64,000 bases of DNA from Escherichia phage vB_EcoM_OE5505. Below the pieces are notes generated by a model. It had not been told where the DNA came from. It saw only the letters and a program-made list of their open reading frames with translations, and ran no database searches. This document shows positions 6,448 through 61,062 of the stretch, in pieces. Position 1 is the stretch's first letter. The number at the start of each line of letters is the position of its first letter. The translations under genes and the position numbers were made by a program. Location: the sequence record NC_054926.1; one strand, 5' to 3'.

Positions 6448-6522
6448 TGGTGGCCCTGGGTGGAATTGAACCACCATCTGGCGATTATGAGTCGCTTGCT
6501 TGAACCTTCCAGCTACAGGGCC
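6448..6522 (-). tRNA. tRNA with CAU anticodon (Ile-lysidine type or Met)
   Basis: 75 nt cloverleaf, anticodon loop CUCAUAA; T4 tRNA-Ile also carries CAU. Confidence 0.75.
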
Positions 6523-6531
6523 AAATTTTTC

Positions 6532-7017: not shown

Positions 7018-7061
7018 AAATTTCTCTACTTATTACATGCACTAAGCTAAATCAGCAAAAC

Positions 7062-7151
7062 TGGCGGAGGCGATAGGATTTGAACCTATGAGTCGCCGGA
7101 GCGACTGCCGGTTTTCAAGACCGGTGCATTAAACCACTCTGCCACGCCTCC
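7062..7151 (-). tRNA. tRNA-Ser (anticodon UGA), type II
   Basis: 90 nt, long variable arm, anticodon loop CUUGAAA, acceptor GGAGGCG/CGCCTCC, CCA encoded. Confidence 0.85.
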
Positions 7152-7153
7152 AG

Positions 7154-7227
7154 TCTCCATACAAGGATTTGAACCTTGGACCTCCTGATCCCAAATCAGG
7201 CGCTCTACCAAACTGAGCTACACGGAG
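7154..7227 (-). tRNA. tRNA-Pro (anticodon UGG), CCA not encoded
   Basis: 74 nt, anticodon loop UUUGGGA, only 2 nt from tRNA-Ser (Pro-Ser dimer as in T4). Confidence 0.8.
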
Positions 7228-7237
7228 TAAATTAAAT

Positions 7238-7311
<74 letters not shown>

Positions 7312-7316
7312 AAATT

Positions 7317-7403
7317 TGGTGCGAGAAGTGGGACTCGAACCCACAAGGAAATCATTCCGCAGCATTTTAAGTGCTGTGCCTTTACCAATTTGACCATTCT
7401 CGC
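7317..7403 (-). tRNA. tRNA-Leu (anticodon UAA), type II
   Basis: 87 nt, long variable arm, anticodon loop CUUAAAA, acceptor GCGAGAA/TTCTCGC. Confidence 0.85.
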
Positions 7404-37927: not shown

Positions 37928-38166
37928 TGGAAGGTTTAATTGAAGCTATTAAATCAAACGACCTCGTAGCCGCTCGTAAATTATTTGCTGAAGCCATGGC
38001 TGCAAGAACGATTGATTTAATTAAAGAAGAAAAAATCGCTATCGCTCGTAATTTCTTAATCGAAGGTGAAGAACCTGACGATGAAGATGACGAAGATAGC
38101 GATGATAAAGACGACAAAAAAGACAAAAACTCTGATGAAGATGACGAAGACGAGGATGATGAATAA
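37927..38166 (+). CDS. 67: Prohead core protein gp67
   Basis: 79 aa with extreme acidic C-terminus ([29 protein letters not shown]). Confidence 0.88.
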
Positions 38167-38591
38167 TGCTTCTGATCCCTGAAACTCATGAATTAGTTCT
38201 CGAGAATGTCGAAGCACTTATTCCTGAAGCACAGGGTCGCTTTGACGAATTGTCTTCTGCTTTAAATAAAGACGATATAAATACAATTGTCGAGAATATG
38301 CTTGATGATGAAACTGATTTAGCGGTTGCATTAGCTTCTATTAATGAAAATATGCCGTTAAATGAATTTATCGTTAAACATGTTTCTGCCCGTGGTGAAA
38401 TTACTCGCACTAAAGATCGCAAAACCCGCGAACGTAATGCATTTCAAACTACCGGGTTGTCTAAAGCAAAACGTAGACAAATTGCTCGTAAAGCTACCAA
38501 AACGAAGATTGCCAATCCAGCAGGTCAATCTCGTGCTCAGCGTAAGCGTAAAAAAGCTCTTAAACGCCGTAAAGCATTAGGATTAAGCTAA
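38166..38591 (+). CDS. 68: Prohead core protein gp68
   Basis: 141 aa, basic C-terminus, between 67 and 21. Confidence 0.88.
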
Positions 38592-39229
38592 TGAATGAAC
38601 CCCAATTACTAATTGAAACTTGGGGTCAACCTGGCGAAATTATTGATGGCGTGCCAATGCTTGAATCTCATGATGGAAAAGACCTAGGTTTAAAACCCGG
38701 TTTATACATCGAAGGAATATTCATGCAAGCGGAAGTCGTCAATAGAAATAAACGTCTTTATCCAAAACGCATATTAGAAAAAGCGGTAAAAGACTATATC
38801 AATGAGCAAGTTTTAACTAAACAAGCTCTCGGAGAATTAAATCATCCTCCACGCGCTAATGTTGACCCGATGCAAGCCGCTATCATTATAGAAGATATGT
38901 GGTGGAAAGGAAATGACGTATACGGACGAGCTCGTGTTATTGAAGGTGACCACGGTCCTGGAGATAAATTAGCAGCTAATATTCGTGCCGGATGGATTCC
39001 AGGAGTTTCTTCTCGTGGATTAGGTTCATTGACTGACACAAATAAAGGTTATCGTATCGTAAACGAAGGATTCAAATTAACTGTAGGTGTTGATGCAGTA
39101 TGGGGTCCAAGTGCTCCAGATGCATGGGTAACTCCTAAGGAAATTACCGAATCACAGACGGCGGAAGCCGATACAAGTGCCGATGACGCCTATATGGCTC
39201 TCGCAGAGGCCATGAAAAAAGCGTTATAA
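38591..39229 (+). CDS. 21: Prohead core protease gp21
   Basis: 212 aa, length and order as T4. Confidence 0.93.
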   Translation: MNEPQLLIETWGQPGEIIDGVPMLESHDGKDLGLKPGLYIEGIFMQAEVVNRNKRLYPKRILEKAVKDYINEQVLTKQALGELNHPPRANVDPMQAAIIIEDMWWKGNDVYGRARVIEGDHGPGDKLAANIRAGWIPGVSSRGLGSLTDTNKGYRIVNEGFKLTVGVDAVWGPSAPDAWVTPKEITESQTAEADTSADDAYMALAEAMKKAL

Positions 39230-39232
39230 ATA
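39225..39232 (+). promoter_or_regulatory. Late promoter TATAAATA for gene 22
   Basis: Exact TATAAATA spanning gene 21 stop codon, 28 nt upstream of gene 22 ATG. Confidence 0.6.
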
Positions 39233-39259
39233 TTATTATCTAAACAACAGGACTACAAA

Positions 39260-40069
39260 ATGCTTAAAGAACAACTGATTGCTGAAGCGCAAAAAATTGA
39301 TGCTTCCGTTGCTCTTGATAGTATTTTCGAATCAGTTAATATTTCTCCGGAAGCAAAAGAAACTTTCGGCACTGTATTCGAAGCTACCGTCAAGCAGCAC
39401 GCCGTTAAATTAGCTGAATCTCATATCGCTAAAATTGCTGAAAAAGCAGAAGAAGAAGTAGAAAAAAATAAAGAAGAAGCAGAAGAAAAAGCTGAGAAGA
39501 AAATCGCTGAGCAAGCTTCTAAATTCATCGACCATCTTGCGAAAGAATGGCTCGCTGAAAATAAATTAGCAGTTGATAAAGGCATCAAAGCCGAACTGTT
39601 TGAATCCATGCTTGGTGGATTAAAAGAGCTCTTTGTTGAACACAACGTTGTTGTTCCAGAAGAATCAGTTGATGTTGTAGCTGAAATGGAAGAAGAGCTG
39701 CAAGAACATAAAGAAGAATCAGCTCGTCTGTTCGAAGAACTCAATAAGCGTGACGCATATATCAATTATGTGCAGCGTGAAGTGGCATTGAGCGAAAGTA
39801 CTAAAGATCTGACTGAGTCTCAAAAAGAAAAAGTCTCTGCTCTGGTCGAAGGTATGGATTATTCAGATGCATTCTCAAGTAAATTGAGTGCCATCGTAGA
39901 AATGGTGAAGAAGTCTAATAAAGATGAAAGCACTATTACTGAGAGTATAAATACTCCTGATACTGAAGCAGCCGGACTGAATTTCGTCACTGAAGCTGTA
40001 GAAGATAAAACTGCACCTGGTGCAGAAGATATTGTAAGTGTATATGCGAAAGTCGCATCTCGTTTCTAA
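39260..40069 (+). CDS. 22: Prohead scaffolding core protein gp22
   Basis: 269 aa, Glu/Lys/Ala-rich helical, order as T4. Confidence 0.93.
   Translation: MLKEQLIAEAQKIDASVALDSIFESVNISPEAKETFGTVFEATVKQHAVKLAESHIAKIAEKAEEEVEKNKEEAEEKAEKKIAEQASKFIDHLAKEWLAENKLAVDKGIKAELFESMLGGLKELFVEHNVVVPEESVDVVAEMEEELQEHKEESARLFEELNKRDAYINYVQREVALSESTKDLTESQKEKVSALVEGMDYSDAFSSKLSAIVEMVKKSNKDESTITESINTPDTEAAGLNFVTEAVEDKTAPGAEDIVSVYAKVASRF
39956..39963 (+). promoter_or_regulatory. Late promoter TATAAATA inside gene 22 (candidate gene 23 promoter)
   Basis: Exact TATAAATA about 125 nt upstream of gene 23 ATG. Confidence 0.5.
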
Positions 40070-40087
40070 TTTTAAAGGTTAACACAA

Positions 40088-41653
40088 ATGACTATCAAAA
40101 CTAAAGCTGAACTTTTGAACAAATGGAAGCCATTACTGGAAGGTGAAGGTTTACCGGAAATTGCTAATAGCAAACAAGCGATTATCGCTAAAATCTTTGA
40201 AAACCAGGAAAAAGATTTCCAGACAGCTCCAGAGTACAAAGACGAAAAAATCGCCCAGGCATTTGGTTCTTTCTTAACAGAAGCTGAAATCGGTGGTGAC
40301 CACGGTTACAACGCTACTAACATTGCTGCTGGTCAGACTTCTGGCGCAGTAACTCAGATTGGCCCAGCTGTTATGGGTATGGTACGTCGTGCTATTCCTA
40401 ACCTGATTGCTTTCGATATTTGCGGTGTTCAGCCGATGAATAGCCCGACTGGCCAGGTATTCGCACTGCGTGCAGTATATGGTAAAGACCCAATCGCTGC
40501 TGATGCTAAAGAAGCATTCCACCCAATGTATGGTCCAGATGCAATGTTCTCTGGTCAGGGTGCTGCTAAGAAATTCCCAGCTCTGGCTGCTAGCACACAA
40601 ACCAAAGTAGGTGATATCTATACTCACTTCTTCCAGGAAACTGGTACTGTATATCTGCAAGCTTCTGCTCAAGTAACAATTAGTTCTACTGCAGATGATG
40701 CAGCTAAATTAGATGCTGAAATTAAGAAACAAATGGAAGCTGGCGCATTGGTAGAAATCGCTGAAGGTATGGCTACTTCTATCGCTGAACTTCAGGAAGG
40801 TTTCAACGGTTCTACCGATAACCCATGGAATGAAATGGGCTTCCGTATCGATAAACAAGTTATCGAAGCTAAATCTCGTCAGCTGAAAGCTGCTTACTCT
40901 ATCGAATTAGCACAAGACCTCCGCGCTGTTCACGGTATGGATGCTGATGCTGAACTGTCTGGTATTCTGGCTACCGAAATCATGTTGGAAATCAACCGTG
41001 AAGTTGTTGATTGGATTAACTACTCAGCTCAGGTTGGTAAATCTGGTATGACCCTGACTCCGGGTTCTAAAGCTGGTGTATTTGACTTCCAGGATCCGAT
41101 TGATATTCGTGGTGCTCGCTGGGCGGGTGAATCCTTTAAAGCTCTGTTGTTCCAGATTGACAAAGAAGCAGTTGAAATTGCTCGTCAGACCGGTCGTGGT
41201 GAAGGTAACTTCATTATCGCTTCCCGTAACGTAGTTAACGTTCTGGCTTCAGTTGATACTGGCATTTCTTATGCTGCACAGGGTCTGGCTACCGGCTTTA
41301 ACACTGATACTACCAAGTCAGTATTTGCTGGTGTTCTGGGTGGTAAATACCGTGTATATATCGACCAGTATGCTAAACAGGATTATTTCACCGTAGGTTA
41401 TAAAGGTCCGAACGAAATGGATGCTGGTATTTACTATGCTCCATATGTAGCTCTGACTCCGCTGCGTGGTTCTGATCCGAAGAACTTCCAACCGGTAATG
41501 GGATTCAAAACTCGTTACGGTATCGGTATCAACCCATTTGCAGAATCCGCTGCTCAGGCTCCGGCTTCTCGCATCCAGAGCGGTATGCCTTCTATTCTGA
41601 ATAGCCTTGGTAAAAACGCTTACTTCCGCCGTGTATATGTTAAAGGTATCTAA
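40088..41653 (+). CDS. 23: Major capsid protein gp23
   Basis: 521 aa, length and order as T4; E. coli-like codon bias typical of highly expressed gene. Confidence 0.97.
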   Translation: MTIKTKAELLNKWKPLLEGEGLPEIANSKQAIIAKIFENQEKDFQTAPEYKDEKIAQAFGSFLTEAEIGGDHGYNATNIAAGQTSGAVTQIGPAVMGMVRRAIPNLIAFDICGVQPMNSPTGQVFALRAVYGKDPIAADAKEAFHPMYGPDAMFSGQGAAKKFPALAASTQTKVGDIYTHFFQETGTVYLQASAQVTISSTADDAAKLDAEIKKQMEAGALVEIAEGMATSIAELQEGFNGSTDNPWNEMGFRIDKQVIEAKSRQLKAAYSIELAQDLRAVHGMDADAELSGILATEIMLEINREVVDWINYSAQVGKSGMTLTPGSKAGVFDFQDPIDIRGARWAGESFKALLFQIDKEAVEIARQTGRGEGNFIIASRNVVNVLASVDTGISYAAQGLATGFNTDTTKSVFAGVLGGKYRVYIDQYAKQDYFTVGYKGPNEMDAGIYYAPYVALTPLRGSDPKNFQPVMGFKTRYGIGINPFAESAAQAPASRIQSGMPSILNSLGKNAYFRRVYVKGI

Positions 41654-41667
41654 TCTTTGACGATTTA

Positions 41668-41696
41668 AGGGACCTTCGGGTCCCTTTAGTTGTTTT
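41668..41696 (+). terminator. Rho-independent terminator after gene 23
   Basis: GGGACC-TTCG-GGTCCC hairpin followed by TTTAGTTGTTTTT. Confidence 0.65.
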
Positions 41697-41702
41697 TATG
41701 GT

Positions 41703-41710
41703 ATAAATAA
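41703..41710 (+). promoter_or_regulatory. Late promoter TATAAATA for gene 24
   Basis: Exact TATAAATA 26 nt upstream of gene 24 ATG. Confidence 0.6.
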
Positions 41711-41736
41711 ATCATATAAACTGAAAGGAAAGCGCA

Positions 41737-43020
41737 ATGGCTAAAATCAACGAACTTCTGCGCGAATCAACCACAACGAATAGCAACTCAATCGGTCGCC
41801 CAAATCTCGTTGCTTTGACTCGCGCTACCACTAAATTAATATATTCTGACATTGTAGCAACGCAAAGAACTAATCAACCTGTTGCTGCTTTTTATGGTAT
41901 CAAATACCTTAACCCGGATAACGAATTTACATTTAAAACTGGTGCTACTTACGCCGGCGAAGCTGGGTATGTAGACCGAGAACAAATCACAGAATTAACA
42001 GAAGAGTCTAAATTAACTCTCAATAAAGGCGATTTATTCAAATATAATAACATCGTTTATAAAGTATTAGAAGATACACCATTTGCTGATATTGAAGAAA
42101 GCGATTTAGAATTAGCTCTTCAGATTGCAATTGTTCTTTTAAAGGTTCGTCTATTTTCTGATGCTGCAGTAACAAGCAAATTTGAAAACTCTGATAGCGA
42201 AATTGCGGATGCTAGATTCCAGATTAATAAATGGCAAACCGCAGTTAAATCTCGTAAACTTAAAACTGGCATCACAGTCGAATTAGCACAAGATTTAGAA
42301 GCAAATGGATTTGATGCTCCTAATTTCTTGGAAGATTTGCTTGCAACTGAAATGGCGGATGAAATCAATAAAGATATTCTACAGTCTTTGATTACAGTAT
42401 CAAAACGCTATAAAGTTACAGGAATTACTGATACTGGATTCATTGATTTGAGTTATGCATCTGCACCTGAAGCTGGTCGTTCATTATACCGAATGGTGTG
42501 TGAAATGGTTTCACATATCCAAAAAGAATCAACTTATACAGCAACGTTCTGTGTTGCTTCAGCTCGTGCCGCTGCGATTCTTGCTGCATCAGGTTGGTTA
42601 AAACATAAACCAGAAGATGACAAATATCTTTCACAAAATGCCTACGGGTTCTTAGCTAATGGTTTACCGCTTTATTGCGATACCAACAGTCCATTAGATT
42701 ATGTAATCGTTGGTGTAGTAGAAAATATTGGTGAAAAAGAAATTGTTGGATCAATTTTCTATGCCCCGTATACAGAAGGTCTTGACTTAGATGACCCTGA
42801 ACATGTAGGTGCATTTAAAGTTGTAGTTGATCCAGAAAGTTTGCAGCCATCTATCGGTTTATTAGTTAGATATGCTTTATCTGCAAATCCTTACACTGTA
42901 GCAAAAAATGAAAAAGAAGCAAGAGTAATTGATGGTGGAGACATGGATAAAATGGCGGGTCGTTCAGATTTGTCTGTTTTATTAGGTGTTAAGCTACCAA
43001 AAATTATCATTGATGAATAA
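41737..43020 (+). CDS. 24: Capsid vertex protein gp24
   Basis: 427 aa, length and order as T4; no segD ORF between 23 and 24. Confidence 0.95.
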   Translation: MAKINELLRESTTTNSNSIGRPNLVALTRATTKLIYSDIVATQRTNQPVAAFYGIKYLNPDNEFTFKTGATYAGEAGYVDREQITELTEESKLTLNKGDLFKYNNIVYKVLEDTPFADIEESDLELALQIAIVLLKVRLFSDAAVTSKFENSDSEIADARFQINKWQTAVKSRKLKTGITVELAQDLEANGFDAPNFLEDLLATEMADEINKDILQSLITVSKRYKVTGITDTGFIDLSYASAPEAGRSLYRMVCEMVSHIQKESTYTATFCVASARAAAILAASGWLKHKPEDDKYLSQNAYGFLANGLPLYCDTNSPLDYVIVGVVENIGEKEIVGSIFYAPYTEGLDLDDPEHVGAFKVVVDPESLQPSIGLLVRYALSANPYTVAKNEKEARVIDGGDMDKMAGRSDLSVLLGVKLPKIIIDE

Positions 43021-43023
43021 AAC

Positions 43024-43049
43024 AAAGGGACCGAAAGGTCCCCCTTTTT
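43024..43049. terminator. Bidirectional terminator between gene 24 and rnlB
   Basis: GGGACC-GAAA-GGTCCC hairpin flanked by A-run and T-run. Confidence 0.65.
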
Positions 43050-43051
43050 AT

Positions 43052-44056
43052 TTAACTTACCAATTCAATCCAAGCCGGACGAAGTACATCTTGTACCATT
43101 TTAACTAATTCCTTCTTAATCAAAGAAGGATTATCCGCTTGAGTTAGAGTAATACCTTCACGAGAAGTTTCTTCCAAAATATCTTGAACCGTTAGTCCCA
43201 TCACCTTTCCAAAATCTTTTGGACCAATTTCACCAATTTTAGAAATAACGTTATTTACTCGGTTCAGTGTAACGTAACAAGCTAAAATTCCAACCAATTT
43301 GTTATCAGCTTCTGACAACTCAACTTTAGCTTTAATAGGCTTATCAGACTTTTTCTTTTCACTAAATTTAGAGTTCTTGCATTTGATAGCTACGCGATTG
43401 CCATTAGGCATCCAAGAAGGATAACAAGGTTTCAATACATATCCTTCAGCGGTAAATACTTCGCCTTTTACTTCAGCATTCCAAACGCATTTATTTGCAT
43501 CAACTAATCCAGCATGGTCTACCGTAAAATTATAATCCTGGACGACAGAATCTAAATCATTTGGCAATTTAATAAGTTCTTCAAATTTACCGCGACCTAA
43601 AAGTGGAGCCATTTTAAATTTAAATGTATTGCAGAATGATTCCATCATATAATCATCGACATAAGTCACATCACCACTTTCTGTAGTAACAATAATGTCA
43701 AATACATAAAAATCTTTATCGCCATAATCGACATTCTTCTGAATGCCAGGTCCGGCGAATTCACCGAAGACTTGATAAGATACAACCGCTGAAGTTTCCA
43801 TAATATCTTGTACTGCTTTAATGGAATCAGCGTAATTCTTCAAAATAATTTCATACCCAAAGAAATCTTCAGCAGGAAGAATAGGACCAGTGCGTTTAGC
43901 ACAAGTTACTTTATCACGCTCAATAATTAATGAGAAATTTGTGCCATGAATCTTTTCACGAGCTACCCATTCGCCACCAGTCAATCCTAAACTATAAAGT
44001 TTTTCAATGAATTTAGAATTGTAATGATTTTCAAGACTGCTATACTTTTTAAACAT
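43052..44056 (-). CDS. rnlB: RNA ligase 2
   Basis: 334 aa; nucleotidyltransferase lysine motif KIHGTN; position as T4 rnlB (24.1). Confidence 0.92.
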
Positions 44057-44065
44057 AATTAATCC

Positions 44066-44344
44066 TCAAAATGTAATTTCTAACCAATCACCATCACGCT
44101 GATCACTATTGACTTTAAAGCTAAATCCTTCTTTTCTCAGCCAATCACCAATTTCTTCAGTAATCAATTTATCGCGAGCAGTACAATAATAACTAAAATA
44201 TGTTTTACCTTGTTCAGCTGCTTTATTAGCAAGTTCCGAAAAATCTTTAATAAAACACTCTAGCTTAAACTGTTTACTTTTAAGTGCTTTTTCGCGTAAT
44301 CGATTAGCAAAAGATTCATTTTCATAAAGATCATACTGTTCCAT
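44066..44344 (-). CDS. 24.2: Hypothetical protein 24.2
   Basis: 92 aa ORF between rnlB and 24.3. Confidence 0.75.
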   Translation of the reverse strand: MEQYDLYENESFANRLREKALKSKQFKLECFIKDFSELANKAAEQGKTYFSYYCTARDKLITEEIGDWLRKEGFSFKVNSDQRDGDWLEITF

Positions 44345-44347
44345 TTT

Positions 44348-44545
44348 TCACCTTTTATTAATATGTCTTTTTCTATAGACAACTTTTTCTCGAGTTTCAA
44401 ATTTATTCTTAGCAGTCATAGCTCGAGCCCATAATACAGCCACTTCTTTCGCCTGTAAGTTTAATTCACGAGCAATTTCAATGAATGACTTTCCAGACTC
44501 ATGAAGAGTAAACACCACAACCTCAGTTCTCATAATCAATCTCAT
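44348..44545 (-). CDS. 24.3: Hypothetical protein 24.3
   Basis: 65 aa ORF, basic. Confidence 0.7.
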   Translation of the reverse strand: MRLIMRTEVVVFTLHESGKSFIEIARELNLQAKEVAVLWARAMTAKNKFETREKVVYRKRHINKR

Positions 44546-44640
44546 GTTATCGAGTTGATGCCATTATATACATCATTTTCTGAGTATGTTTTGTGTGCTT
44601 TCAAAATGAAGAAAGGGGCCGAAGCCCCTTATGATTATGA

Positions 44641-45777
44641 TTATGGATAGGTATAGATGATACCAGTTTCTAAAGCAGTTTTATGAATGATGTATCCATT
44701 GCGTGATTCTTGAACATCAACTTCTGGATAGTCTTTCATCATCTTCTGAAGAGTGTAACGATGCAGGTAGTATTTACTGTCTGGATCTTCAGTTTTCCAA
44801 TCTTTACCTTCTTCGGTCATTTTTTGGATTTCATCCATAACCCACCAACCGCACCAGATATAAGCTGAAGTACGATGTGGAAGAGGATGAACATAAGGCA
44901 ATTCACCTTCTGGTTCCGGAGCAACTTTATCAGTTACCTGAACTTGGCCTGTTGCTTTAACTGTTTTACTATCATAGTCGGTTGCTGTAACGACAGCAGT
45001 AACTTCAATAGTTTGACTTCCAATAGATGAGGTGTCAATGGTGTATACGTTAGTTGACCCTTCTACAGGAGAAGAATCTTTCTTCCATGAATAAGTAATT
45101 TATGCTGCTTCAGGTGCTCCAGTAACATTAGCCGTAAATGTAGCCGAAGCATCTTGCTGAACGTTAATAGAAGGAGGAGTCAATGTAACCTGTGGATTCA
45201 TTGTCTTCTTATTAACTGTCAATGATACTTCATTAGAAGTAACTTCCTTTTCATTGTAATTTTCTGCAGTTACTTGCGCTACACATTTAATTCTTTTTAC
45301 TCCACTTGTAGTTGGAGTATAGTTAAATGTAGAGTTAGTTTCTCCACCAATTTGAGAATCATCTACATACCACTTATATGTAGCAGACGCTCCATCAGGT
45401 TGAGAAGCTAAGGCAGCAGTAAATTGAACTGGAGTTCCGATTACTCCTTCCGAAGGACTATCAGGAGTTACTGTTATTGTAGTAGTCTGTGTCTTATTTT
45501 GAACTGTGATAGTTGTCGTAGTTTCTGCTGTTTCAGGTTCAGCTTCAGATTCTGGAACTGTATTTGTTGCAACCACCTTAATAGTCTTTTGACCTGCAGG
45601 TCCTTTTAGTACATAGCTAAAAGTTGCTTCAGCTCCATCCTGTGGAACATTATCTACACTCCAAGCATAGGTAATAGTTCCACCTTCAGTTTGACCACTG
45701 GGTGCAGCAGTAAACTGCTTGGTTTCATCAATAACTCCTGTTGGGGTTTTAGGAGTTATATCAACTGTAAAAGTCAT
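44641..45777 (-). pseudogene. hoc: hoc (highly immunogenic outer capsid protein) with in-frame premature ochre stop at 45100-45102
   Basis: 225 codons of Ig-like domains, TAA, then 152 further in-frame codons ending ...IIHKTALETGIIYTYP. Confidence 0.85.
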
Positions 45778-45786
45778 AAGTTATCC

Positions 45787-46467
45787 TTATTTTAATGTTA
45801 CGAAAGAAGAATTGCGTGTTTCACGAATTAGAACTGATCCATCACGATTAATGTAGTAAATTAAGCTAAATAACGTTTGGTGCGCCGACGCGTGTTCAAA
45901 ACTAGTTGGGTGAGATTTCCAATCCGGAGTTTCAGCAATCCATTGATAAATCCACCAAGGAACAGTACAGAATCCTGGATTTTTTCCAATCAGCTGAAGA
46001 TTCGGACTAAAGTTTTCCGGAAGAGTAAATACAGACGGCTTTTCAAATTCAATAATCTCAGCTACAGCCTGTTCGAATTTTTCTTCAACAAAAGGAGTAT
46101 CTTCAATCAAAACATCAGTATTTTCAGGAATTTTATCCGTTTCTACTACTTCAATTTTAATGTCAGATTTAACCGGAGAATCAATCAGAAGTGCTGCCTC
46201 TGGATTGACTTCTTCATCGTCATATTTTAATCCGTCTGCGGCATCAGCAGCATCGATTAAGTCTTTAATAGATAACCCATCAGTCTCTGGCATAGGTTCA
46301 CTAGCGAGCTTCTGGAGGGCTTCTTCAATATCATTAACGATATTATCAAAAGATTTATTCTTTTTGACCTTTATACCAAACTGTTCAGCATATTCAGCTA
46401 ATTTAGCTTTAGCTTCTTTATTATCATCAAGAGCCTTCAGCTCTGCAATATAATCTTTATCTATCAT
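45787..46467 (-). CDS. inh: Inhibitor of prohead protease
   Basis: 226 aa, length and position as T4 inh. Confidence 0.9.
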   Translation of the reverse strand: MIDKDYIAELKALDDNKEAKAKLAEYAEQFGIKVKKNKSFDNIVNDIEEALQKLASEPMPETDGLSIKDLIDAADAADGLKYDDEEVNPEAALLIDSPVKSDIKIEVVETDKIPENTDVLIEDTPFVEEKFEQAVAEIIEFEKPSVFTLPENFSPNLQLIGKNPGFCTVPWWIYQWIAETPDWKSHPTSFEHASAHQTLFSLIYYINRDGSVLIRETRNSSFVTLK

Positions 46468-46480
46468 AATATTTCCTCAG

Positions 46481-46488
46481 TATAAATA
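46481..46488 (+). promoter_or_regulatory. TATAAATA box upstream of uvsW
   Basis: Exact TATAAATA 30 nt upstream of uvsW ATG. Confidence 0.5.
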
Positions 46489-46517
46489 TAGATATATTTA
46501 TTACATGGTATTTAGAC

Positions 46518-48029
46518 ATGACTGACATTAAAGTACATTTTTATGATTTTAGTCACGTGAGAATTGATTGTGAAGAAAGTACATTTCATGAACTCCGTGA
46601 TTTCTTTAGCTTTGAAGCTGATGGGTATCGTTTTAATCCGAAGTACAAATATGGTCACTGGGATGGACGAATTCGTCTTTTAGATTATAATCGCCTTCTT
46701 CCATTCGGTTTAGTCGGGCAAATTAAAAAGTTCTGTGATAACTTTGGCTATAAAGCCTGGATTGACCCGCAAATTAACGAAAAAGAAGAATTATCAAGAA
46801 AAGATTTTGATGAATGGCTTTCTAAATTAGAAATCTATTCAGGAAATAAAAGAATTGAACCGCATTGGTATCAAAAAGATGCAGTGTTCGAAGGATTAGT
46901 TAATCGTCGTAGAATTCTTAATCTTCCAACATCCGCAGGTAAATCTTTAATTCAAGCTTTGCTTGCTCGGTATTATTTGGAAAATTATGAAGGCAAAATT
47001 CTTATTATTGTTCCAACAACTGCTCTGACAACTCAGATGGCTGATGACTTTGTTGACTATCGTTTATTCAGTCATGCAATGATAAAGAAAATCGGTGGTG
47101 GAGCATCAAAAGATGATAAATATAAAAATGATGCACCGGTCGTTGTTGGTACATGGCAAACTGTAGTAAAACAACCGAAAGAATGGTTCTCACAGTTTGG
47201 AATGATGATGAATGATGAATGTCATCTTGCTACAGGAAAAAGTATTTCATCTATCATATCAGGTTTAAATAACTGCATGTTCAAATTCGGTTTGTCTGGT
47301 TCATTACGTGATGGCAAAGCCAATATCATGCAGTATGTTGGAATGTTCGGTGAAATATTTAAGCCAGTAACGACCTCTAAATTAATGGAAGATGGACAAG
47401 TAACTGAGTTAAAAATTAATAGTATTTTTCTTCGCTATCCCGATGAGTTCACTACTAAATTAAAGGGAAAAACTTACCAAGAAGAAATAAAAATTATTAC
47501 TGGGCTTAGTAAAAGAAATAAATGGATCGCTAAATTAGCTATTAAGCTTGCACAAAAAGATGAAAACGCTTTTGTCATGTTTAAACACGTATCGCACGGT
47601 AAAGCTATTTTCGATTTAATTAAAAATGAATACGATAAAGTTTATTACGTATCAGGGGAAGTTGATACCGAAACCCGCAATATAATGAAAACCTTAGCTG
47701 AAAACGGTAAAGGAATAATTATAGTAGCTAGTTATGGTGTATTTTCTACTGGTATTTCAGTTAAAAATCTGCATCACGTTGTTTTAGCACACGGTGTTAA
47801 ATCTAAAATTATTGTATTGCAAACAATAGGTCGCGTATTACGTAAACATGGTTCTAAAACAATCGCAACAGTCTGGGACCTCATAGATGATTGTGGTGTT
47901 AAGCCAAAATCTGCTAATACGAAAAAGAAATACGTTCATTTGAACTATCTTTTAAAACACGGCATTGATCGTATTCAGCGCTACGCAGATGAAAAATTTA
48001 ATTACGTAATGAAAACAGTTAATTTATAA
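46518..48029 (+). CDS. uvsW: UvsW DNA/RNA helicase
   Basis: 503 aa; Walker A PTSAGKS, DECH box MMNDECHLA. Confidence 0.95.
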   Translation: MTDIKVHFYDFSHVRIDCEESTFHELRDFFSFEADGYRFNPKYKYGHWDGRIRLLDYNRLLPFGLVGQIKKFCDNFGYKAWIDPQINEKEELSRKDFDEWLSKLEIYSGNKRIEPHWYQKDAVFEGLVNRRRILNLPTSAGKSLIQALLARYYLENYEGKILIIVPTTALTTQMADDFVDYRLFSHAMIKKIGGGASKDDKYKNDAPVVVGTWQTVVKQPKEWFSQFGMMMNDECHLATGKSISSIISGLNNCMFKFGLSGSLRDGKANIMQYVGMFGEIFKPVTTSKLMEDGQVTELKINSIFLRYPDEFTTKLKGKTYQEEIKIITGLSKRNKWIAKLAIKLAQKDENAFVMFKHVSHGKAIFDLIKNEYDKVYYVSGEVDTETRNIMKTLAENGKGIIIVASYGVFSTGISVKNLHHVVLAHGVKSKIIVLQTIGRVLRKHGSKTIATVWDLIDDCGVKPKSANTKKKYVHLNYLLKHGIDRIQRYADEKFNYVMKTVNL

Positions 48030-48042
48030 GGGCTTCGGCCCT

Positions 48043-48285
48043 TTGGAGAAAAAGATGTTACTAGAATTTAAACAATTTCTTTATGAAGCTTCTATTGATG
48101 AATTTATGGGTAAAATTGCCTCTTGTCAAACAATAGAAGGTCTAGAAGAACTTGAAGCTTATTATAAGAAAAGAGTTAAAGAAACTGAATTAAAAGATAC
48201 TGATGACATCTCAGTCAGAGATGCTTTGGCAGGAAAAAGAGCTGAATTAGAAGATTCAGACGATGAAGTAGAAGAAAGCTTTTAA
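48043..48285 (+). CDS. uvsW.1: UvsW.1
   Basis: 80 aa acidic ORF immediately after uvsW. Confidence 0.85.
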   Translation: MEKKMLLEFKQFLYEASIDEFMGKIASCQTIEGLEELEAYYKKRVKETELKDTDDISVRDALAGKRAELEDSDDEVEESF

Positions 48286-48340
48286 ATTAAAAAAGGCCCA
48301 ACCAAAAAGGAAGGGCCAAAACTATAGACTAAAGGTCACA

Positions 48341-48508
48341 CTATAGCAAAAGTTGTGTTTCATTTAATTGTTCTTCCGAACTTTCTGAAACTGGTAGTTC
48401 TTTAATGTAATTATAACAAGGCCCAGGATGTACAGGACCTTTGTCTGTTTCAACAACCAATGCAGAATCGATTGGAGTTTTACAGACAACGCAAATCTTA
48501 TCTGACAT
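48341..48508 (-). CDS. Small Cys-rich protein (uvsY-upstream small ORF), not in ORF track
   Basis: 55 aa, MSDKICVVCKTPID...HPGPCYNY; RBS GGAGACAATC before ATG; translated by hand. Confidence 0.55.
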   Translation of the reverse strand: MSDKICVVCKTPIDSALVVETDKGPVHPGPCYNYIKELPVSESSEEQLNETQLLL

Positions 48509-48536
48509 GATTGTCTCCTCTAAATTATATATCTAT

Positions 48537-48761
48537 TTATATAACTCTCATATGCATATCAATGCCCATATCTTTAGAATAAAAATATTCATCAAGATAT
48601 CCGGCAAATTTTCCTTTAATATAAAGAACATCTTCACCGCACGGGTGGTCGGCCAGGATACGAATATCCTGACGCTTAAGATTATGCTTTTTCATTAAGA
48701 ATTGAATTTCCGTTTCGAATTCTTCTTCATAATTAAAAGCATCATCAATGCTATATTTCAT
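48537..48761 (-). CDS. Hypothetical protein adjacent to uvsY
   Basis: 74 aa ORF, start overlaps uvsY stop. Confidence 0.7.
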   Translation of the reverse strand: MKYSIDDAFNYEEEFETEIQFLMKKHNLKRQDIRILADHPCGEDVLYIKGKFAGYLDEYFYSKDMGIDMHMRVI

Positions 48762-49174
48762 TATTTTCCAGCCTCAAATGCTCGCATGTCTTGAATATGC
48801 TTAATAGCAAATCCGCGTGATTTAATAGCATCAAGAGCTCCGCTACAGAAATCCAATAAAATTCCCCAATATTGCAATGAAGTATCAACTTTTAAAACAT
48901 CCTTATCAGCTGATAGAACTGTCTTCATTTCTGATTTCTCATAACGGTCCATACTAAATTCATCACCATCTCCTCGTCCCGAGTAGTAGTCTAATTTAGC
49001 TTTAAGAGCAACTTTTTTCTGTGCTTCAATTCTAAGCATTTCCTTTTTAATACTTGAATGCTTATTAAGCCATTTACTATATAACATCACATTATTAGCT
49101 GCTTCATACTGTAATTTAGTCGAATCTATAAACACATCTTTCTTCAATTCTTCTTGAAGATCTTCTAATCTCAT
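48761..49174 (-). CDS. uvsY: UvsY recombination mediator
   Basis: 137 aa, length and position as T4 UvsY. Confidence 0.93.
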   Translation of the reverse strand: MRLEDLQEELKKDVFIDSTKLQYEAANNVMLYSKWLNKHSSIKKEMLRIEAQKKVALKAKLDYYSGRGDGDEFSMDRYEKSEMKTVLSADKDVLKVDTSLQYWGILLDFCSGALDAIKSRGFAIKHIQDMRAFEAGK

Positions 49175-49240
49175 ATTGTTCTCTATTCAATTGTTATTGG
49201 ATGGACTTAGATTCATTATACCACGTTTATACGTGAAGCA

Positions 49241-49636
49241 TTATACTCTGTTACTGGAAGCCAGTTGTAGTTTTATCTGCTCAATATCATCAGGGTTATC
49301 GATGACTGAAAAGCGTATTTCTACTATCAGAGTATAATCATCATAAACCGGTATTACATTAACTGCTAATTTATCAATACGTGGCTCGTAGTTTCTTACT
49401 GCGCTTTCAATGTTACGCTCAACGGTATCAGCAGTAAGAGGAGTCATATTCTCAAAAAGCTGATCAGATAAATCGCATCCAAATTCAGGGTCAAACGGTC
49501 TTGAACCTTTTCTTGTTGTAATAATTCCTAAAAGACTATTTTTAATTGACCTTAATCCAAGTGATCTTGAAACGTCTTTGTTCCAATCCATTTTCATCTC
49601 TGGGTCAATATCAGAATAAAGCTTATTAATTGCCAT
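49241..49636 (-). CDS. 25: Baseplate wedge protein gp25
   Basis: 131 aa, position as T4 gp25. Confidence 0.92.
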   Translation of the reverse strand: MAINKLYSDIDPEMKMDWNKDVSRSLGLRSIKNSLLGIITTRKGSRPFDPEFGCDLSDQLFENMTPLTADTVERNIESAVRNYEPRIDKLAVNVIPVYDDYTLIVEIRFSVIDNPDDIEQIKLQLASSNRV

Positions 49637-50262
49637 TACAATAGCTCAAAGAATTCTTTGAGTCCTCTTATTACATGAGCGTGAGTTTTTCCACACTCTG
49701 GACATTTAATTGGAACAGCCAAATAAACAGTAGGCTTTAAAAGCATATCTTTTATAGCTACAATATCTGACTCTGTGATGATAGAATATAAATCTTCTAG
49801 TTCCTTTTCATTTAAGTCTTCAACTGGAATGCTTTCCCCGTTAGCATGAATCGTTTCTATACATGATACTATCATGTGGGCTATATTTTTATCATCAAAA
49901 ATTTTAGGGTATCGGAATTTAATTTTAATGTCACCCAGTGTATACCAAAGGTCTTCTGGTGCATCTATTTGTGTATGTAATAGATTTATATGGGTTGGTA
50001 TTTCAGTTCCGCAGGTGCACTTCCAGGAGTTTTCGTGATTAACTTCTCCAAGAGAATGCGCCCATAAATGAATCAACAATAGTTCTGATTCTTGGCGATT
50101 TAAATCTTTTGCATTTGTGCAGTCTTTGATTAGCTTTTTAACAATTACTTCTACAGAACCATTATTTTTGGCAGTAATAAGTTCTAGATATTCTTTAAGA
50201 GTAAATGCGCGACAGTTGATTATTTTAGAACCAACTCTCACATCAAATTTGTATTCATACAT
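49636..50262 (-). CDS. 26: Baseplate hub protein gp26
   Basis: 208 aa, same length as T4 gp26. Confidence 0.9.
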
Positions 50263-50283
50263 ATTTAGCTCCTTTATTTATCA

Positions 50284-50295
50284 TATTTATAAATA
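50284..50295. promoter_or_regulatory. Overlapping divergent late promoters (TATTTATAAATA) for genes 26 and 51
   Basis: TATAAATA readable on both strands within one 12-bp palindrome-like element. Confidence 0.55.
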
Positions 50296-50312
50296 GAATA
50301 AAAGGAGCATCT

Positions 50313-51065
50313 ATGGCAAACATTATTCGTTGTAAATTACCAGATGGTGTTCATCGTTTTAAACCATTTACGGTAGAAGATTATCGAGATTTTTTGTTAG
50401 TTCGAAACGATATAGAACATCGGTCACCACAAGAACAAAAAGAAATAATTACTGATTTAATTGATGATTATTTTGGAGACTATCCGAAGACTTGGCAACC
50501 ATTTATATTTTTGCAGGTATTTGTAGGTTCAATAGGTAAAACTAAAGTACCAGTCACATTTGTATGTCCAAAATGTAAAAAAGAAAAGACAGTTCCATTT
50601 GAAATATATCAAAAAGAATTAAAGGAACCTATTTTTGATGTAGCTAATGTTAAAATTAAATTAAATTTTCCTTCTGAGTTTTATGAAAATAAAGCAAAGA
50701 TGATTACTGAAAATATTCATTCTGTTCAAGTAGATGAAATGTGGTATGATTGGAAGGAAATTAGTGAATCGAGTCAAATAGAACTTGTTGACGCCATCGA
50801 GATAGAAACATTAGAAAAAATTCTCGATGCAATGAATCCTATTAATTTAACATTGCACATGTCGTGTTGTGATAAGTACATTAAAAAATACACTGATATA
50901 GTAGATGTGTTTAAGCTATTAGTTAATCCAGATGAGATATTTACTTTTTATCAAATTAATCACACGCTTGTAAAAAGTAATTATAGCTTAAATTCAATAA
51001 TGAAAATGATTCCTGCCGAGCGCGGATTCGTATTAAAACTGATTGAGAAGGATAAACATCAATGA
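50313..51065 (+). CDS. 51: Baseplate hub assembly protein gp51
   Basis: 250 aa, position as T4 gp51. Confidence 0.9.
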
Positions 51066-52237
51066 GTATGTTACAACGTCCTGGATATCCAAATCTCAGC
51101 GTTAAATTATTTGAGAGTTATGACGCTTGGAGTAATAATAGATTTGTTGAATTAGCTGCTACTATTACCACATTAACTATGCGTGACTCTCTTTATGGTC
51201 GAAATGAAGGAATGCTGCAGTTTTATGATTCTAAAAATATCCACACAAAAATGGATGGAAATGAAATAATTCAAATTTCTGTAGCTAATGCAAACGATAT
51301 TAATAATGTTAAAACACGAATTTATGGATGCAAGCATTTTTCCGTGTCAGTAGATTCAAAAGGCGATAACATCATTGCTATTGAATTGGGAACTATTCAT
51401 TCTATAGAAAATCTTAAATTTGGTAGACCATTTTTCCCTGATGCAGGTGAATCTATAAAAGAAATGCTTGGTGTCATTTATCAAGACCGCACATTATTAA
51501 CTCCAGCAATAAATGCTATAAATGCTTATGTTCCTGATATTCCATGGACTAGTACATTTGAAAATTATTTGTCCTATGTAAGAGAAGTTGCTCTAGCTGT
51601 AGGAAGTGACAAATTTGTATTTGTGTGGCAAGACATCATGGGAGTTAACATGATGGACTATGATATGATGATAAATCAAGAACCATATCCAATGATTGTA
51701 GGTGAGCCATCTTTAATAGGTCAATTCATCCAAGAATTAAAATATCCATTGGCATATGATTTTGTTTGGTTGACTAAATCAAACCCGCATAAACGTGATC
51801 CAATGAAAAATGCTACTATCTATGCTCATTCGTTTTTAGATTCTTCACTGCCAATGATTACTACAGGAAAGGGTGAAAACTCTATTGTAGTGTCAAGGTC
51901 AGGTGCTTATTCTGAAATGACTTATAGGAATGGCTATGAAGAAGCTATTCGTCTTCAAACTATGGCGCAATATGATGGCTATGCTAAATGTTCTACTGTC
52001 GGTAATTTTAACTTGACTCCTGGTGTTAAAATTATTTTTAATGATAGTAAAAACCAATTTAAAACAGAATTTTACGTTGATGAAGTTATCCATGAATTAT
52101 CAAATAATAATTCAGTAACTCATCTATATATGTTCACTAATGCAACGAAACTGGAAACAATAGACCCAGTTAAGGTTAAAAATGAATTTAAATCTGATAC
52201 TACCACTGAAGAAAGTAGTTCTTCCAATAAGCAATAA
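51062..52237 (+). CDS. 27: Baseplate hub protein gp27
   Basis: 391 aa, same length as T4 gp27. Confidence 0.93.
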
Positions 52238-56930: not shown

Positions 56931-58982
56931 CTACATTTTGAACTTTTTAGACATTCCGTTGATGTTAACCAAAGAAGCTAAGATTTGAGAAACTTCGCTT
57001 TCCTCTTCTTTTGATTCTTCTACAAGGAATTGATTAAATCCAGCCATTGGACGAACTTCACCAGTTTCCATTAGATGGTCGCCATCATATACTGATTCTT
57101 CTAATTGTTCAGAAGGAGGAACGATTGTACCTTCGATTAGATACTTGTTATAAGCAGTTTCTTTCATAAAGTAAGTACTTACTTTATTAATCTTCAGTAA
57201 AATTCCACGTGGTAGAATAATTTCAGCTTCTGACGGAAATCCTGATAAATGACCCGGAACGATAACTTTGATTCGCTCAGCTCCTTTAATTACCATACCC
57301 ACGCTAGTTTCAGCATCTTCATTAGCATATGTAGAATGACTACCCATATGCATCAAATCTTCTGCATCAACGGAACCTTCTCCTTCACCAGAAAATACTG
57401 CGCCGGAATCATCTAGAGCCATATAGTTTTTACCATGCTCACCGAAGATATTTGGTTTAAGCGATGTGGATACGAAGTTCTTGAAATAGAACATTTTATT
57501 TTCAATGTTATGACGCAAAGTTTTAAAGGTAACTTCTTGTCCACGGTAAAGTGTAGTTCCTGGAGGAAGAACTGAACCTTTAGCGAATGCAGAATCAAGC
57601 GTCTCAATATGTTTAATAGCTCGTTCCATATATTCTTCACGGGTAGAATCTGGTTTACCCAAAAGGAACGAGTTCATTTCAACATATGAATCTGCACAAT
57701 AATCTTCAATTACATCAGATTCAGCTTGAGTTAATCCTTTTGGAGTTACTTCAGTGCTTGCGTATTCATATGCCTGAGCAGCAGATTCATTAATCAATTT
57801 ATAAATGCCATTCATGACAAATTGAATAATAGCTGTCTTTTCATCTGGCGTAGCTTTAGAACCTTTAACCAAATCATTGATAATTTTCTTAATAACATCA
57901 AAGCTATTAGAAATATTAATATCAGCAAGATCGCTTAAAATTTTATCAGTCTTATAATCAAAGAATTCTTTATTCTTTAAATATTCTTGAGAACCTTGAT
58001 ATGTTATATCGCTCTGTAACTTGATAGATGGATCACGTAAACGTGCATGGGCTAATGCAATATGATTTCGGAAGCTTTCGAGTTCATAATCACTAGATTT
58101 AAAACGAGAAGCGCTTCTCATACCGCCTATAGCTCCTTTGCTGAAGTTTGAACCAATTTGAATAACGCCAGAGTTCATTGGTCCTTCTGCTTTATACACC
58201 GGAACTTTAGATTCAAACTCTTGATATTTCTTAGCAGCGAAGCTATCACCCTGAAGTGAAGCATCAACAGTAGAATATTGAGCTTGTGCTGCTAATCGAC
58301 GACTAATTTTAGTTTTCTGAATAACAGCTTGGTCCGTGCGCTTATCATTTTCTAAAGCAATAGAAGCAGCAACAGCTTTAGGAACAGCATTACCTGTTTT
58401 AACATCTACATAAACATCACCAACCTTTGATTCAACTTTTGTGAATAACTCAGTTGAAATAGGAGGTACACCTGGAATGTCTTCTAAATTGGCATTTTTA
58501 CGATAAACCATAATATATGCGTACTTTTTATCATAATCCCAGATTTCCTTTAAAAGAACATATCGACCTGCTCCTTTAGTACGTACTAAACGGTCAGCAA
58601 TAACTTGCATTTGACGAGCTGCGCCATTTGTTTTACTCTTTAGTACACGGAATAAGCACGCGTCAATTTTATACTGCTTCATTGTTTGAAGAGCAGTATC
58701 AAAAACGGCATTAATGACACCAATTGGATTTCCACCCAAGTTTTTAAGCTTAACTAATGATAGTTTCTCATTAACACCTATCATTACGATATGCATCATT
58801 TTATCGCCTGGCTTAACGTTTTTATTCGTATCACCACCAGAGGTGTATGTACAAAATCTAAATCCAGGAAGCACGCTTTCTTCGCCGGCTTGAATAGCAA
58901 AAATTTGTGGTATTTTATGCTTAGGATTTAAGTTAACAACCGGCGCCGAAGCGCCGTCAAATAATTCTGTAATAAGTTCCAT
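56931..58982 (-). CDS. Alt-like ADP-ribosyltransferase paralog
   Basis: 683 aa; N-terminus MELITELFD; R-S-ExE signature (LYRGQ, FVSTSL, EAEIILPRG); conserved C-terminal YDGDHLMETGEV. Confidence 0.85.
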   Translation of the reverse strand: MELITELFDGASAPVVNLNPKHKIPQIFAIQAGEESVLPGFRFCTYTSGGDTNKNVKPGDKMMHIVMIGVNEKLSLVKLKNLGGNPIGVINAVFDTALQTMKQYKIDACLFRVLKSKTNGAARQMQVIADRLVRTKGAGRYVLLKEIWDYDKKYAYIMVYRKNANLEDIPGVPPISTELFTKVESKVGDVYVDVKTGNAVPKAVAASIALENDKRTDQAVIQKTKISRRLAAQAQYSTVDASLQGDSFAAKKYQEFESKVPVYKAEGPMNSGVIQIGSNFSKGAIGGMRSASRFKSSDYELESFRNHIALAHARLRDPSIKLQSDITYQGSQEYLKNKEFFDYKTDKILSDLADINISNSFDVIKKIINDLVKGSKATPDEKTAIIQFVMNGIYKLINESAAQAYEYASTEVTPKGLTQAESDVIEDYCADSYVEMNSFLLGKPDSTREEYMERAIKHIETLDSAFAKGSVLPPGTTLYRGQEVTFKTLRHNIENKMFYFKNFVSTSLKPNIFGEHGKNYMALDDSGAVFSGEGEGSVDAEDLMHMGSHSTYANEDAETSVGMVIKGAERIKVIVPGHLSGFPSEAEIILPRGILLKINKVSTYFMKETAYNKYLIEGTIVPPSEQLEESVYDGDHLMETGEVRPMAGFNQFLVEESKEEESEVSQILASLVNINGMSKKFKM

Positions 58983-58985: not shown

Positions 58986-61040
58986 TTATCCTTGAACGAA
59001 CTTGTAAGGCATGTTTGCAATATCTATACAAGACGCAATAATTCCAAGAGATGATTCTACTTTCTGTTTAACATTTGATGAAACAAATGATGCAAAGTCA
59101 ACTCTGTCTTCTACTTCAATATCACCTGTCATTGTAACTACTTCGCCGGTTTCCATTAGACGGTCACCGTCATAAATTACCGATTCGGTGAGTTCTTCTG
59201 TGGTCATAACTTCAGCTTGAATAAGCTTGTTGTTAGTTTTAACTGTTCCATCATTGTAAGATGCATCGGTTATTTTATTAACTTTGACCATTAATCCACG
59301 TGGCAAAATGACTTCCATTTCATTTGAAGGTGCTAAACTTCCACCTGGTAAAACAACATTGACTTTATCAGCCCCAGTAATAACCCATCCAATTCCAACT
59401 AAATTATCGCTAGAATTTACTAGTCCTTCATCAGTTTTATCAATAGAAACACTTAAACGCTTTTCGTCTGGTAAAACACCCACAGATGAATCAGTCATCC
59501 AGGTACCAAAAATATTTGGATATAATGATGTTGACACAAAATTTCTAAAATAAAAAACTCGATTTTTTACCAGTGCTTCATATATTGAAGGTAACATTCG
59601 TTGTGAACGATACAAAGTAATACCTTTTGGTAATCGTTCACCATTTTTAAAGGCTGAATCTAAATTATCAATAGCTTTTTCTATGTCAGATGCTGTCAAA
59701 ATACTTGTACGCTCATCTGGATTATATAATCCCAAAAGAGCATTATTTATGTCTACATATCCTGAACCTACGTATTCACGAATTCCGCGTTTTTGTGCTG
59801 GTGTGTATTTAGATGAATCTTTATTTTCGACTATAGGATGTAATGACCATCCAGCGGTAAGAGCATATCCACGCAATTCTCTTCGAATAATCTTTGTTTT
59901 TATTGCATTCCAAGAATTTTGTACTAACTCATTCGCAGCATCTTGATTTAAATGCGAATGCTTGTTAATGTTTCTTTCTAACCAAGCACCTTTATATTTT
60001 TCTAAAGTATCATCAACTATAGAAGCAATAGTTTCTAAAGTTTTTATTGAAGTAATAGATTCTTTTCGTAATCTTTCTAAAGCTTTATTTTTTATTTCTG
60101 CATTAACATCAGATTCTTTATCTTCAGGAATTATAGAAGCTTCTCTGAATGCCATTCCAGCTGTAACACTACTAAGAGCATTCTCTAATGCAAATCCTGA
60201 AGTAGAAATAACAGTTAATTCATTAGCGTCAGAAATTAAAGGAGCGTCAGCAGGTTTATTTAATTCTGCTGCTGAAGCCTCAAATTTTTGAAACATCGGC
60301 GTTTCAAATCTAGAAGATTCCAATGATTGACTTTGCGCAATTGCTCTACGGGAAATTTTAACTTTAACGATTACAGCTTGGTCAGAACGTTTATCATTTT
60401 CTTGCGCAATAGATGCTGCAATTGCCTCATTTTTAGTTACTTGAGCTCCAGTATCTTTATTGATATAAACATCACCGACCTTCGATTCAACTTTAGTAAA
60501 GAGCTCAGTACTAATTTCCGGAACTCCCGGAATGTCTTCTAGTGATACATTTTTGCGATGTATAAGAATATATGCATACTTTTTATCGTAATCCCAGAGT
60601 TCCTTAAGAAGGACGTATCTGCCACCTGAACGACTGCGGATAAGTCTATCAGCAATAAGTTGAATTTGACGAGCTTGACCAGCAGTTTTAGACTTAAGAA
60701 TACGGAGCATGCAGGCATCAATTTTATACTGACGCATCGTTTGCATTGCAACTGTAAAAACTGAATTGATATAATTAATTGGGCTTGGACCAAGACCTTT
60801 TAATTTAGCAATTGAACCTTTAGCAGTTAATGTAAAAGGAACAATATGCATCATTTTATCGCCCATCTTTAAATCGCGATTAGTATCACCTCCAGATGTA
60901 TAGGTACATAAACGAAAGCCTGGTTGTTCAATTGCATCATCAACATGAACTGAAAAAATTTGCGGTATTTTCTTCTTTGGATTTAAGTTTGTAATCGGAA
61001 GAGTAGTATCTTCGTCAAATAATTCTGTAATAAGTTCCAT
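58986..61040 (-). CDS. alt: Alt ADP-ribosyltransferase (virion-packaged, modifies host RNA polymerase)
   Basis: 682 aa from second Met; R-S-ExE signature (LYRSQ, FVSTSL, EMEVILPRG); adjacent to gene 30 as in T4. Confidence 0.9.
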   Translation of the reverse strand: MELITELFDEDTTLPITNLNPKKKIPQIFSVHVDDAIEQPGFRLCTYTSGGDTNRDLKMGDKMMHIVPFTLTAKGSIAKLKGLGPSPINYINSVFTVAMQTMRQYKIDACMLRILKSKTAGQARQIQLIADRLIRSRSGGRYVLLKELWDYDKKYAYILIHRKNVSLEDIPGVPEISTELFTKVESKVGDVYINKDTGAQVTKNEAIAASIAQENDKRSDQAVIVKVKISRRAIAQSQSLESSRFETPMFQKFEASAAELNKPADAPLISDANELTVISTSGFALENALSSVTAGMAFREASIIPEDKESDVNAEIKNKALERLRKESITSIKTLETIASIVDDTLEKYKGAWLERNINKHSHLNQDAANELVQNSWNAIKTKIIRRELRGYALTAGWSLHPIVENKDSSKYTPAQKRGIREYVGSGYVDINNALLGLYNPDERTSILTASDIEKAIDNLDSAFKNGERLPKGITLYRSQRMLPSIYEALVKNRVFYFRNFVSTSLYPNIFGTWMTDSSVGVLPDEKRLSVSIDKTDEGLVNSSDNLVGIGWVITGADKVNVVLPGGSLAPSNEMEVILPRGLMVKVNKITDASYNDGTVKTNNKLIQAEVMTTEELTESVIYDGDRLMETGEVVTMTGDIEVEDRVDFASFVSSNVKQKVESSLGIIASCIDIANMPYKFVQG

Positions 61041-61062
61041 CATAGCCTCTCTAGTGTTTATT

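Follow-up and report, generated by a model that had tools for sequence, protein, structure and literature searches.

Organization of the hoc locus

The window analysed here is a stretch of 64,000 nucleotides from Escherichia phage vB_EcoM_OE5505 (NC_054926.1). Its hoc gene lies on the minus strand in one reading frame that is broken by an internal stop codon (Table 1); the phage is otherwise an ordinary mosaic Tequatrovirus. Translation of the frame gives MTFTVDITPK...TANVTGAPEAA (225 codons), a stop, and then ITYSWKKDSSPVEG...GIIYTYP (152 codons) before the natural stop. The plus strand reads 'tta' at 45100-45102, corresponding to TAA on the coding strand. An earlier note on this DNA had described the interrupted frame, and its coordinates, codon counts and peptide ends proved exact. 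When the stop is read as glutamine, the conceptual Hoc of 378 amino acids matches the Hoc chain in solved T4 capsid structures (5VF3, 8T1X and others) along its whole length (E = 9e-222). hoc is flanked by inh and 24.3/24.2/rnlB in a T4-like order, and a terminator comes after it. In a functional hoc, one uninterrupted ORF encodes the Ig fibre and the capsid-binding domain as a covalently linked whole; here, TAA at codon 226 separates the two. The gene is hoc by descent and a null allele.

Table 1. Features of the hoc locus in the window.
Feature	Position	Strand	Remarks
hoc gene with one internal stop	44641-45777	minus	378 sense-codon positions and natural stop
Translatable N-terminal hoc ORF	45100-45777	minus	225 codons and TAA; also in the ORF list
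Premature ochre TAA, hoc codon 226	45100-45102	minus	T4 Gln224 (CAA)
Untranslated hoc remainder	44641-45099	minus	152 open codons and natural TAA; rest of Ig domain 3 and C-terminal domain
Capsid-binding domain, hoc codons 283-378	44644-44931	minus	T4 residues 281-376; downstream of the stop, sequence intact
Second private hoc change, codon 247	45037-45039	minus	GTT>ATT (Val>Ile; T4 V245); 63 nt past the stop
Shine-Dalgarno-like AAGGA upstream of the hoc ATG	45784-45788	minus	Overlaps the inh stop codon; conserved in T4 and T2
Intrinsic terminator hairpin AAGGGGCTTCGGCCCCTT and T-rich tail	44613-44630	minus	Just after hoc

T4 and T2 have the same hairpin after hoc, and in phage UFV13 it is given as the terminator of hoc (PMC5931544). 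Between the hoc stop and the hairpin, the window has an extra TCATAA (44631-44640) relative to T4 and T2, resulting in TAA TCA TAA TCA TAA. No canonical TATAAATA late promoter is present on the hoc strand between hoc and uvsW. The gap between inh and uvsW is only 50 nt (46468-46517); the segE homing endonuclease gene of T4 and ESh25 is missing from it, as in T2.

A single transition interrupts hoc

The lesion is a G>A change at plus-strand position 45102, equivalent to C>T at coding nucleotide 676, and converts Gln226 to an ochre codon. In a DNA alignment, the hoc genes of T4 (NC_000866) and Shigella phage ESh25 both have CAA at the position of the stop codon, and there is no indel nearby. It follows that the interruption results from a single C>T transition rather than from a frameshift. 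The earlier note had likewise called one nonsense codon without frameshift or deletion, and the T4 glutamine codon that it cited is confirmed by the alignment to T4 hoc. At the DNA level, the window hoc is approximately 91% identical to that of T4 and 98.0% identical to that of ESh25, its closest phage record.

The window has a G+C content of 35.6%, and the median length of an open stretch is 7 codons, with 84 of 8428 open stretches reaching 100 codons. Across all six frames, five stops are flanked on both sides by open stretches of at least 100 codons. Apart from the one in hoc, these are located at the gp12/wac junction, at the gp21/gp22 junction, at the junction of the alt paralogues, and antisense to alt. 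hoc is the sole long gene of the window that is cut by a lone in-frame stop, and the long open frames on either side of this stop are not a chance pattern. The gene offers 34 targets at which a transition creates a stop, or 3% of all possible transitions, and it is thus to be expected that a dispensable gene such as this takes a nonsense mutation from time to time.

The alt paralogues are tandem Alt-like ADP-ribosyltransferase genes on the minus strand (56931-58982 and 58986-61043), encoding 683 and 685 amino acids with Pfam ADPrib_exo_Tox matches. The two genes share a frame and have a single stop codon between them.

The ochre allele in sequence collections

The allele was searched for with a 45-nt probe centred on the variant base, using megablast with a 28-base exact word that was forced to include that base. 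The T-version of the probe matched none of 50,697 phage records and no E. coli genome record. With C in its place, the probe hit 25 phage records, including 23 with 100% identity. All of the 10 loci examined that have the surrounding motif carry CAA (T4, ESh25, AR1, IMG/VR, an ENA scaffold and four metagenome contigs among them). A degenerate-pattern search returned only CAA in IMG/VR and metagenomes and had no match in GTDB genomes.

The picture at the protein level is similar. In a collection of 5.8 billion proteins, glutamine occupies this column in 118 of the best 120 Hoc cluster representatives, and the C-terminal CGWWV motif is kept in 119 of the best 120, the exception ending at the edge of a 1-kb contig. 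A few shorter Hoc proteins of 311, 360 and 365 amino acids do exist; these are not truncated but lack internal parts of Ig domain 3 through in-frame deletions. The truncated product of 225 amino acids has no exact match on record in the collections searched. Among these collections, the ochre allele is a singleton that is private to the window phage.

Contigs that encode an Inh identical to that of the window are 97.5-99.3% identical to the window, too distant for any of them to be a sibling genome. In such close relatives (L039-L045), the length of Hoc is modular, with proteins of 281, 378 and 474 amino acids that all end in GIIYTYP; whole Ig domains have apparently been gained or lost in frame while the capsid-binding domain was kept. 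In one of them (L041, ENA ERZ18533996, 5116-6120), rnlB is split between two predicted ORFs of 94 and 205 amino acids in place of one of 334 amino acids, giving a broken accessory gene beside hoc.

Sequence quality and the age of the mutation

A private nonsense base raises the question of whether the sequence is right. The T could have arisen in sequencing, consensus calling or assembly, or could represent a minority variant of the lysate, in which case the real phage would have CAA and a normal Hoc. This is the foremost of the competing explanations, and it agrees with the occurrence of the TAA allele in no other record searched. T-even DNA has modified cytosines, which can bias some sequencing platforms. 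The quality of the surrounding sequence argues against an artefact. Private substitutions were counted in a 14-kb alignment (38000-52000) of the window and six relatives at 97.3-98.2% identity, and the window has 12, fewer than any of the other six genomes. Every one is a transition, and they run in both directions (8 G:C>A:T and 4 A:T>G:C). Eight are synonymous, one is outside annotated ORFs, and three alter a protein (gp24 D391N, hoc V247I and hoc Q226*). The long structural genes have T4-like lengths and no frameshifts (gp5 to gp24, gp25 to gp29, gp48, gp54, alt and gene 30), in line with the earlier statement that every essential structural gene in the window is intact. With the fewest private substitutions of the seven genomes and no other broken long gene, a generally error-rich assembly is unlikely. 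The site is also outside any homopolymer. An error confined to this base is, in our judgement, improbable, and the base call probably reflects the phage population.

Of the other private changes, D391N (window 42907) affects the vertex protein gp24, and no other protein besides Hoc has a private amino-acid change in the 14-kb region; a gp24 variant with this residue has no exact protein match on record in the collections searched. V247I in hoc corresponds to T4 V245, and the adjacent T4 change D246N altered glycan binding in a gut-on-chip evolution experiment (PMC9271167).

Downstream of the stop, the window hoc differs from that of ESh25 by 11 synonymous and 3 non-synonymous changes. Across the final 625-650 nt of hoc, two alleles, one from an ENA metagenome scaffold (L028) and one from an NCBI assembly contig (L043), differ from the window only at nucleotide 676, the stop site, and nucleotide 739, the site of Val247Ile. 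The downstream sequence without decay and the two-site difference from these alleles point to a recent mutation, and the nonsense change appears to be very recent relative to the divergence of approximately 2% among these phages. A perfectly preserved downstream frame is equally compatible with an artefact, which would show no decay either.

Suppression and re-initiation

An ochre codon that is real at the DNA level may nevertheless be leaky or suppressed. Readthrough, recoding, or a suppressor tRNA from the host or from elsewhere in the phage could make some or all of the Hoc full length, and the open and conserved frame past the stop is what would be expected in that case. Ochre suppressor hosts and phage-derived suppressor tRNAs exist. 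The window itself offers little that fits such a scheme. Its tRNA cluster (6003-7403) comprises nine genes, identified by ARAGORN as Arg-UCU, His-GUG, Asn-GUU, Tyr-GUA, Met-CAU, Ser-UGA, Pro-UGG, Gly-UCC and Leu-UAA. A UUA anticodon, needed for the UAA codon, is absent from all nine tRNAs of the 64-kb window; the Leu tRNA with anticodon UAA reads UUA and UUG. The earlier claim that none of the phage tRNAs in the window reads UAA thus holds. Furthermore, TAA is an ordinary terminator in the window, ending hoc itself, gp12 and gp21, and the flanks of the premature stop are identical in relatives with CAA, so that no dedicated readthrough signal has evolved. The recent origin of the mutation accounts for the conservation downstream. 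We consider suppression very unlikely.

Two other forms of recoding were rejected. Stop-codon reassignment is contradicted by the ordinary window genes that end in TAA, and ribosomal bypassing of the gene 60 type by the unchanged frame, in which no matched take-off and landing codons were seen on inspection. The tRNA set of the window presumably differs from that of T4. Between tRNA-Met and tRNA-Ser lies an ORF of 161 amino acids (6532-7017, minus strand) for which Pfam gave no match.

Separate expression of the 3´ part of hoc, for example from an in-frame TTG (44899-44901), would give capsids decorated with the capsid-binding domain alone, lacking the Ig fibre. The ORF of 86 amino acids that begins at this TTG (44641-44901, LPYVHPLPH...) spans almost exactly the C-terminal domain, and a GAAGGTGA stretch is found just upstream; this Shine-Dalgarno-like stretch is too near the TTG, with a spacing of approximately 1 nt, TTG makes a weak start, the codon is TTA in T4 and T2 such that the start is not conserved, and nothing points to internal initiation in hoc. 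Re-initiation at this site was judged implausible, and separate expression of the 3´ part is the least probable of the alternatives.

Predicted consequences for Hoc and the capsid

The reading that we prefer is that the window phage carries a hoc-null ochre allele and most likely has Hoc-less capsids, to which we assign a probability of approximately 0.8. Pfam identifies a PKD domain at residues 102-173 of Hoc (E = 9e-8) and an Ig_3/I-set domain at 195-262/280, and these limits place the stop inside the third Ig-like domain. The truncated product comprises the first two Ig-like domains and the initial strands of the third, with a predicted pI of 4.4. Its calculated mass is 23.65 kDa, compared to 41.2 kDa for full-length Hoc, close to the approximately 23 and 40 kDa of the earlier note. 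In T4, the capsid-binding domain of Hoc comprises residues 281-376 and holds all of the contacts to gp23, namely Tyr293, His295, His299, Arg300, Trp309/310 and the loop ESRNG 355-359 (Glu355-Gly359) (PMC10385173). The motifs YVHPLPHR, WCGWWV and QESRNGY are all encoded in frame past the stop in the window, where translation would not reach them. In the 14-kb comparison, gp23 shows no private amino-acid change, and the binding sites for Hoc should consequently be present but empty.

In the sequence of events that we propose, a spontaneous and recent C-to-T change would have turned the Gln226 codon of hoc from CAA into TAA. Translation would stop in Ig-like domain 3 and yield a soluble N-terminal fragment of 225 residues and 23.7 kDa. 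Lacking the C-terminal anchor for the centres of the gp23 hexamers, the fragment would presumably fail to bind capsids, leaving the virions devoid of Hoc. The prediction of a Hoc-minus capsid draws on the position of the capsid-binding domain and on the precedent of the T4 mutant HAP1, discussed below. The phage would stay viable because Hoc is a dispensable decoration protein, and Hoc is described as non-essential (PMC3012670, PMC9026906).

By analogy with T4 hoc-null mutants, the window phage would be expected to lose Hoc-dependent surface traits, such as adherence to glycans and mucus, pH-dependent dispersion and the dominant Hoc antigen. T4 hoc-null phages bind glycans and mucus more weakly (PMC9271167) and are altered in clustering, dispersion and titre stability (PMC10385173). 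In a T4 transposon screen, insertions in inh, hoc, segE and uvsW were depleted, though the genes are reported to be non-essential (bioRxiv 10.1101/2025.11.20.689424). The depleted hoc insertions suggest that losing hoc may come at some cost in particular conditions; a transposon insertion and a point nonsense mutation are, besides, different kinds of lesion.

The practical interest is in annotation and for users of the phage in mucosal, immunological and display work. The gene is better annotated as a pseudogene or nonsense allele of hoc than as two hypothetical ORFs. Hoc serves in adherence to fucosylated mucin glycans, in clustering and dispersion of virions, as the dominant capsid antigen and as a display scaffold, and a Hoc-less isolate would therefore behave unlike a Hoc-bearing phage in its retention at mucosae, its pharmacokinetics and immunogenicity, and in display experiments. 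Each of its heads would have approximately 155 empty sites to which Hoc could be added in vitro.

Comparison with other hoc knockouts

Disruption of hoc is rare. Among the IMG/VR hoc loci, 20 of 21 are without frameshift or premature stop, and a split hoc annotation is found in only 1 of the 60 best phage records. Phage G29 (MK327940; L027 301-1774) has a hoc frameshift, with the gene annotated as two PKD-domain proteins, and IMG/VR UViG 2700989062 (L023 1501-2640) has one near codon 146; the neighbouring genes are intact in both. These two are frameshifts, either real or sequencing errors, whereas the window has an in-frame nonsense substitution. The frameshift in G29 is located in an apparent duplicated Ig-domain segment.

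T2 resembles the window phage in being a T-even phage with an inactivated hoc and intact neighbours. Its hoc (AP018813; L004 10440-11595) is annotated as three fragments and, compared with T4 and the window, has frameshifting deletions of 11, 1 and 2 bp. The junction of the 11-bp deletion matches only seven T2 records (AP018813, LC348380, MH751506, PV958097, PV648363/4 and NC_054931) and phage SV76, and its presence in these shows that it is not the error of one assembly. Alignment finds none of the three deletions in the window hoc, which is approximately 94% identical to that of T2; with this identity and different lesions, the proposal that the window is T2 was rejected. The T2 gene is an older, multiply hit pseudogene, whereas that of the window has one point mutation with flanks as in Hoc-positive phages, and the lesion in the window arose independently of those in T2. 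The earlier note cited reports that T2-type capsids lack Hoc and suggested that this would fit the window; the three deletions support the first part at the level of genotype, but the window phage is not T2 and the fit is one of analogy only. T2 heads are said to lack Hoc in 1970s papers on giant T-even heads; no explicit statement to this effect was found in the literature examined.

One may speculate that loss of Hoc has been repeatedly selected and is not a neutral accident, given independent lesions in the T2 clade, HAP1, G29, an IMG/VR genome and the window phage. If so, hoc would be a disposable gene that is shed when the Ig fibres are a liability, as when antibodies to Hoc exert pressure, when virions aggregate at acidic pH, or over long passage in the laboratory. 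The free two-Ig-domain fragment of 23.7 kDa might, in addition, bind glycans or serve as a decoy for antibodies in soluble form. We regard this reading as unlikely. No link between hoc and escape from a bacterial defence system was found in the literature examined.

The closest parallels are found in T4. Like the T4 hoc amber and deletion mutants used for display (Ishii and Yanagida, 1977; hoc- soc-; PMC3012670, PMC10385173), in which premature termination or deletion removes Hoc, the window phage would be without Hoc. Capsids of T4 hoc mutants assemble normally, and their empty Hoc sites bind added Hoc (PMC3012670, PMC10385173). The laboratory mutants were isolated or engineered on purpose; the window mutation is found in a Tequatrovirus other than T4. 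The viable mutant HAP1 (T4 delta-Hoc) has a spontaneous C496T that changes the CAA of Gln166 to TAA, and its virions are without Hoc (PMC10580926). The window hoc has the same type of change, C>T converting a CAA glutamine codon to TAA upstream of the capsid-binding domain, which starts at codon 283. The Hoc-less virion is demonstrated for HAP1, whereas we infer it for the window phage. The mutated codon also differs, being codon 226 (equivalent to T4 Q224) rather than T4 Q166, in a background that is approximately 91% identical to T4 in hoc. hoc nonsense mutants of this kind were thus already known and the allele at codon 226 is new; it involves no new mechanism and adds one independent hoc knockout to a short list.
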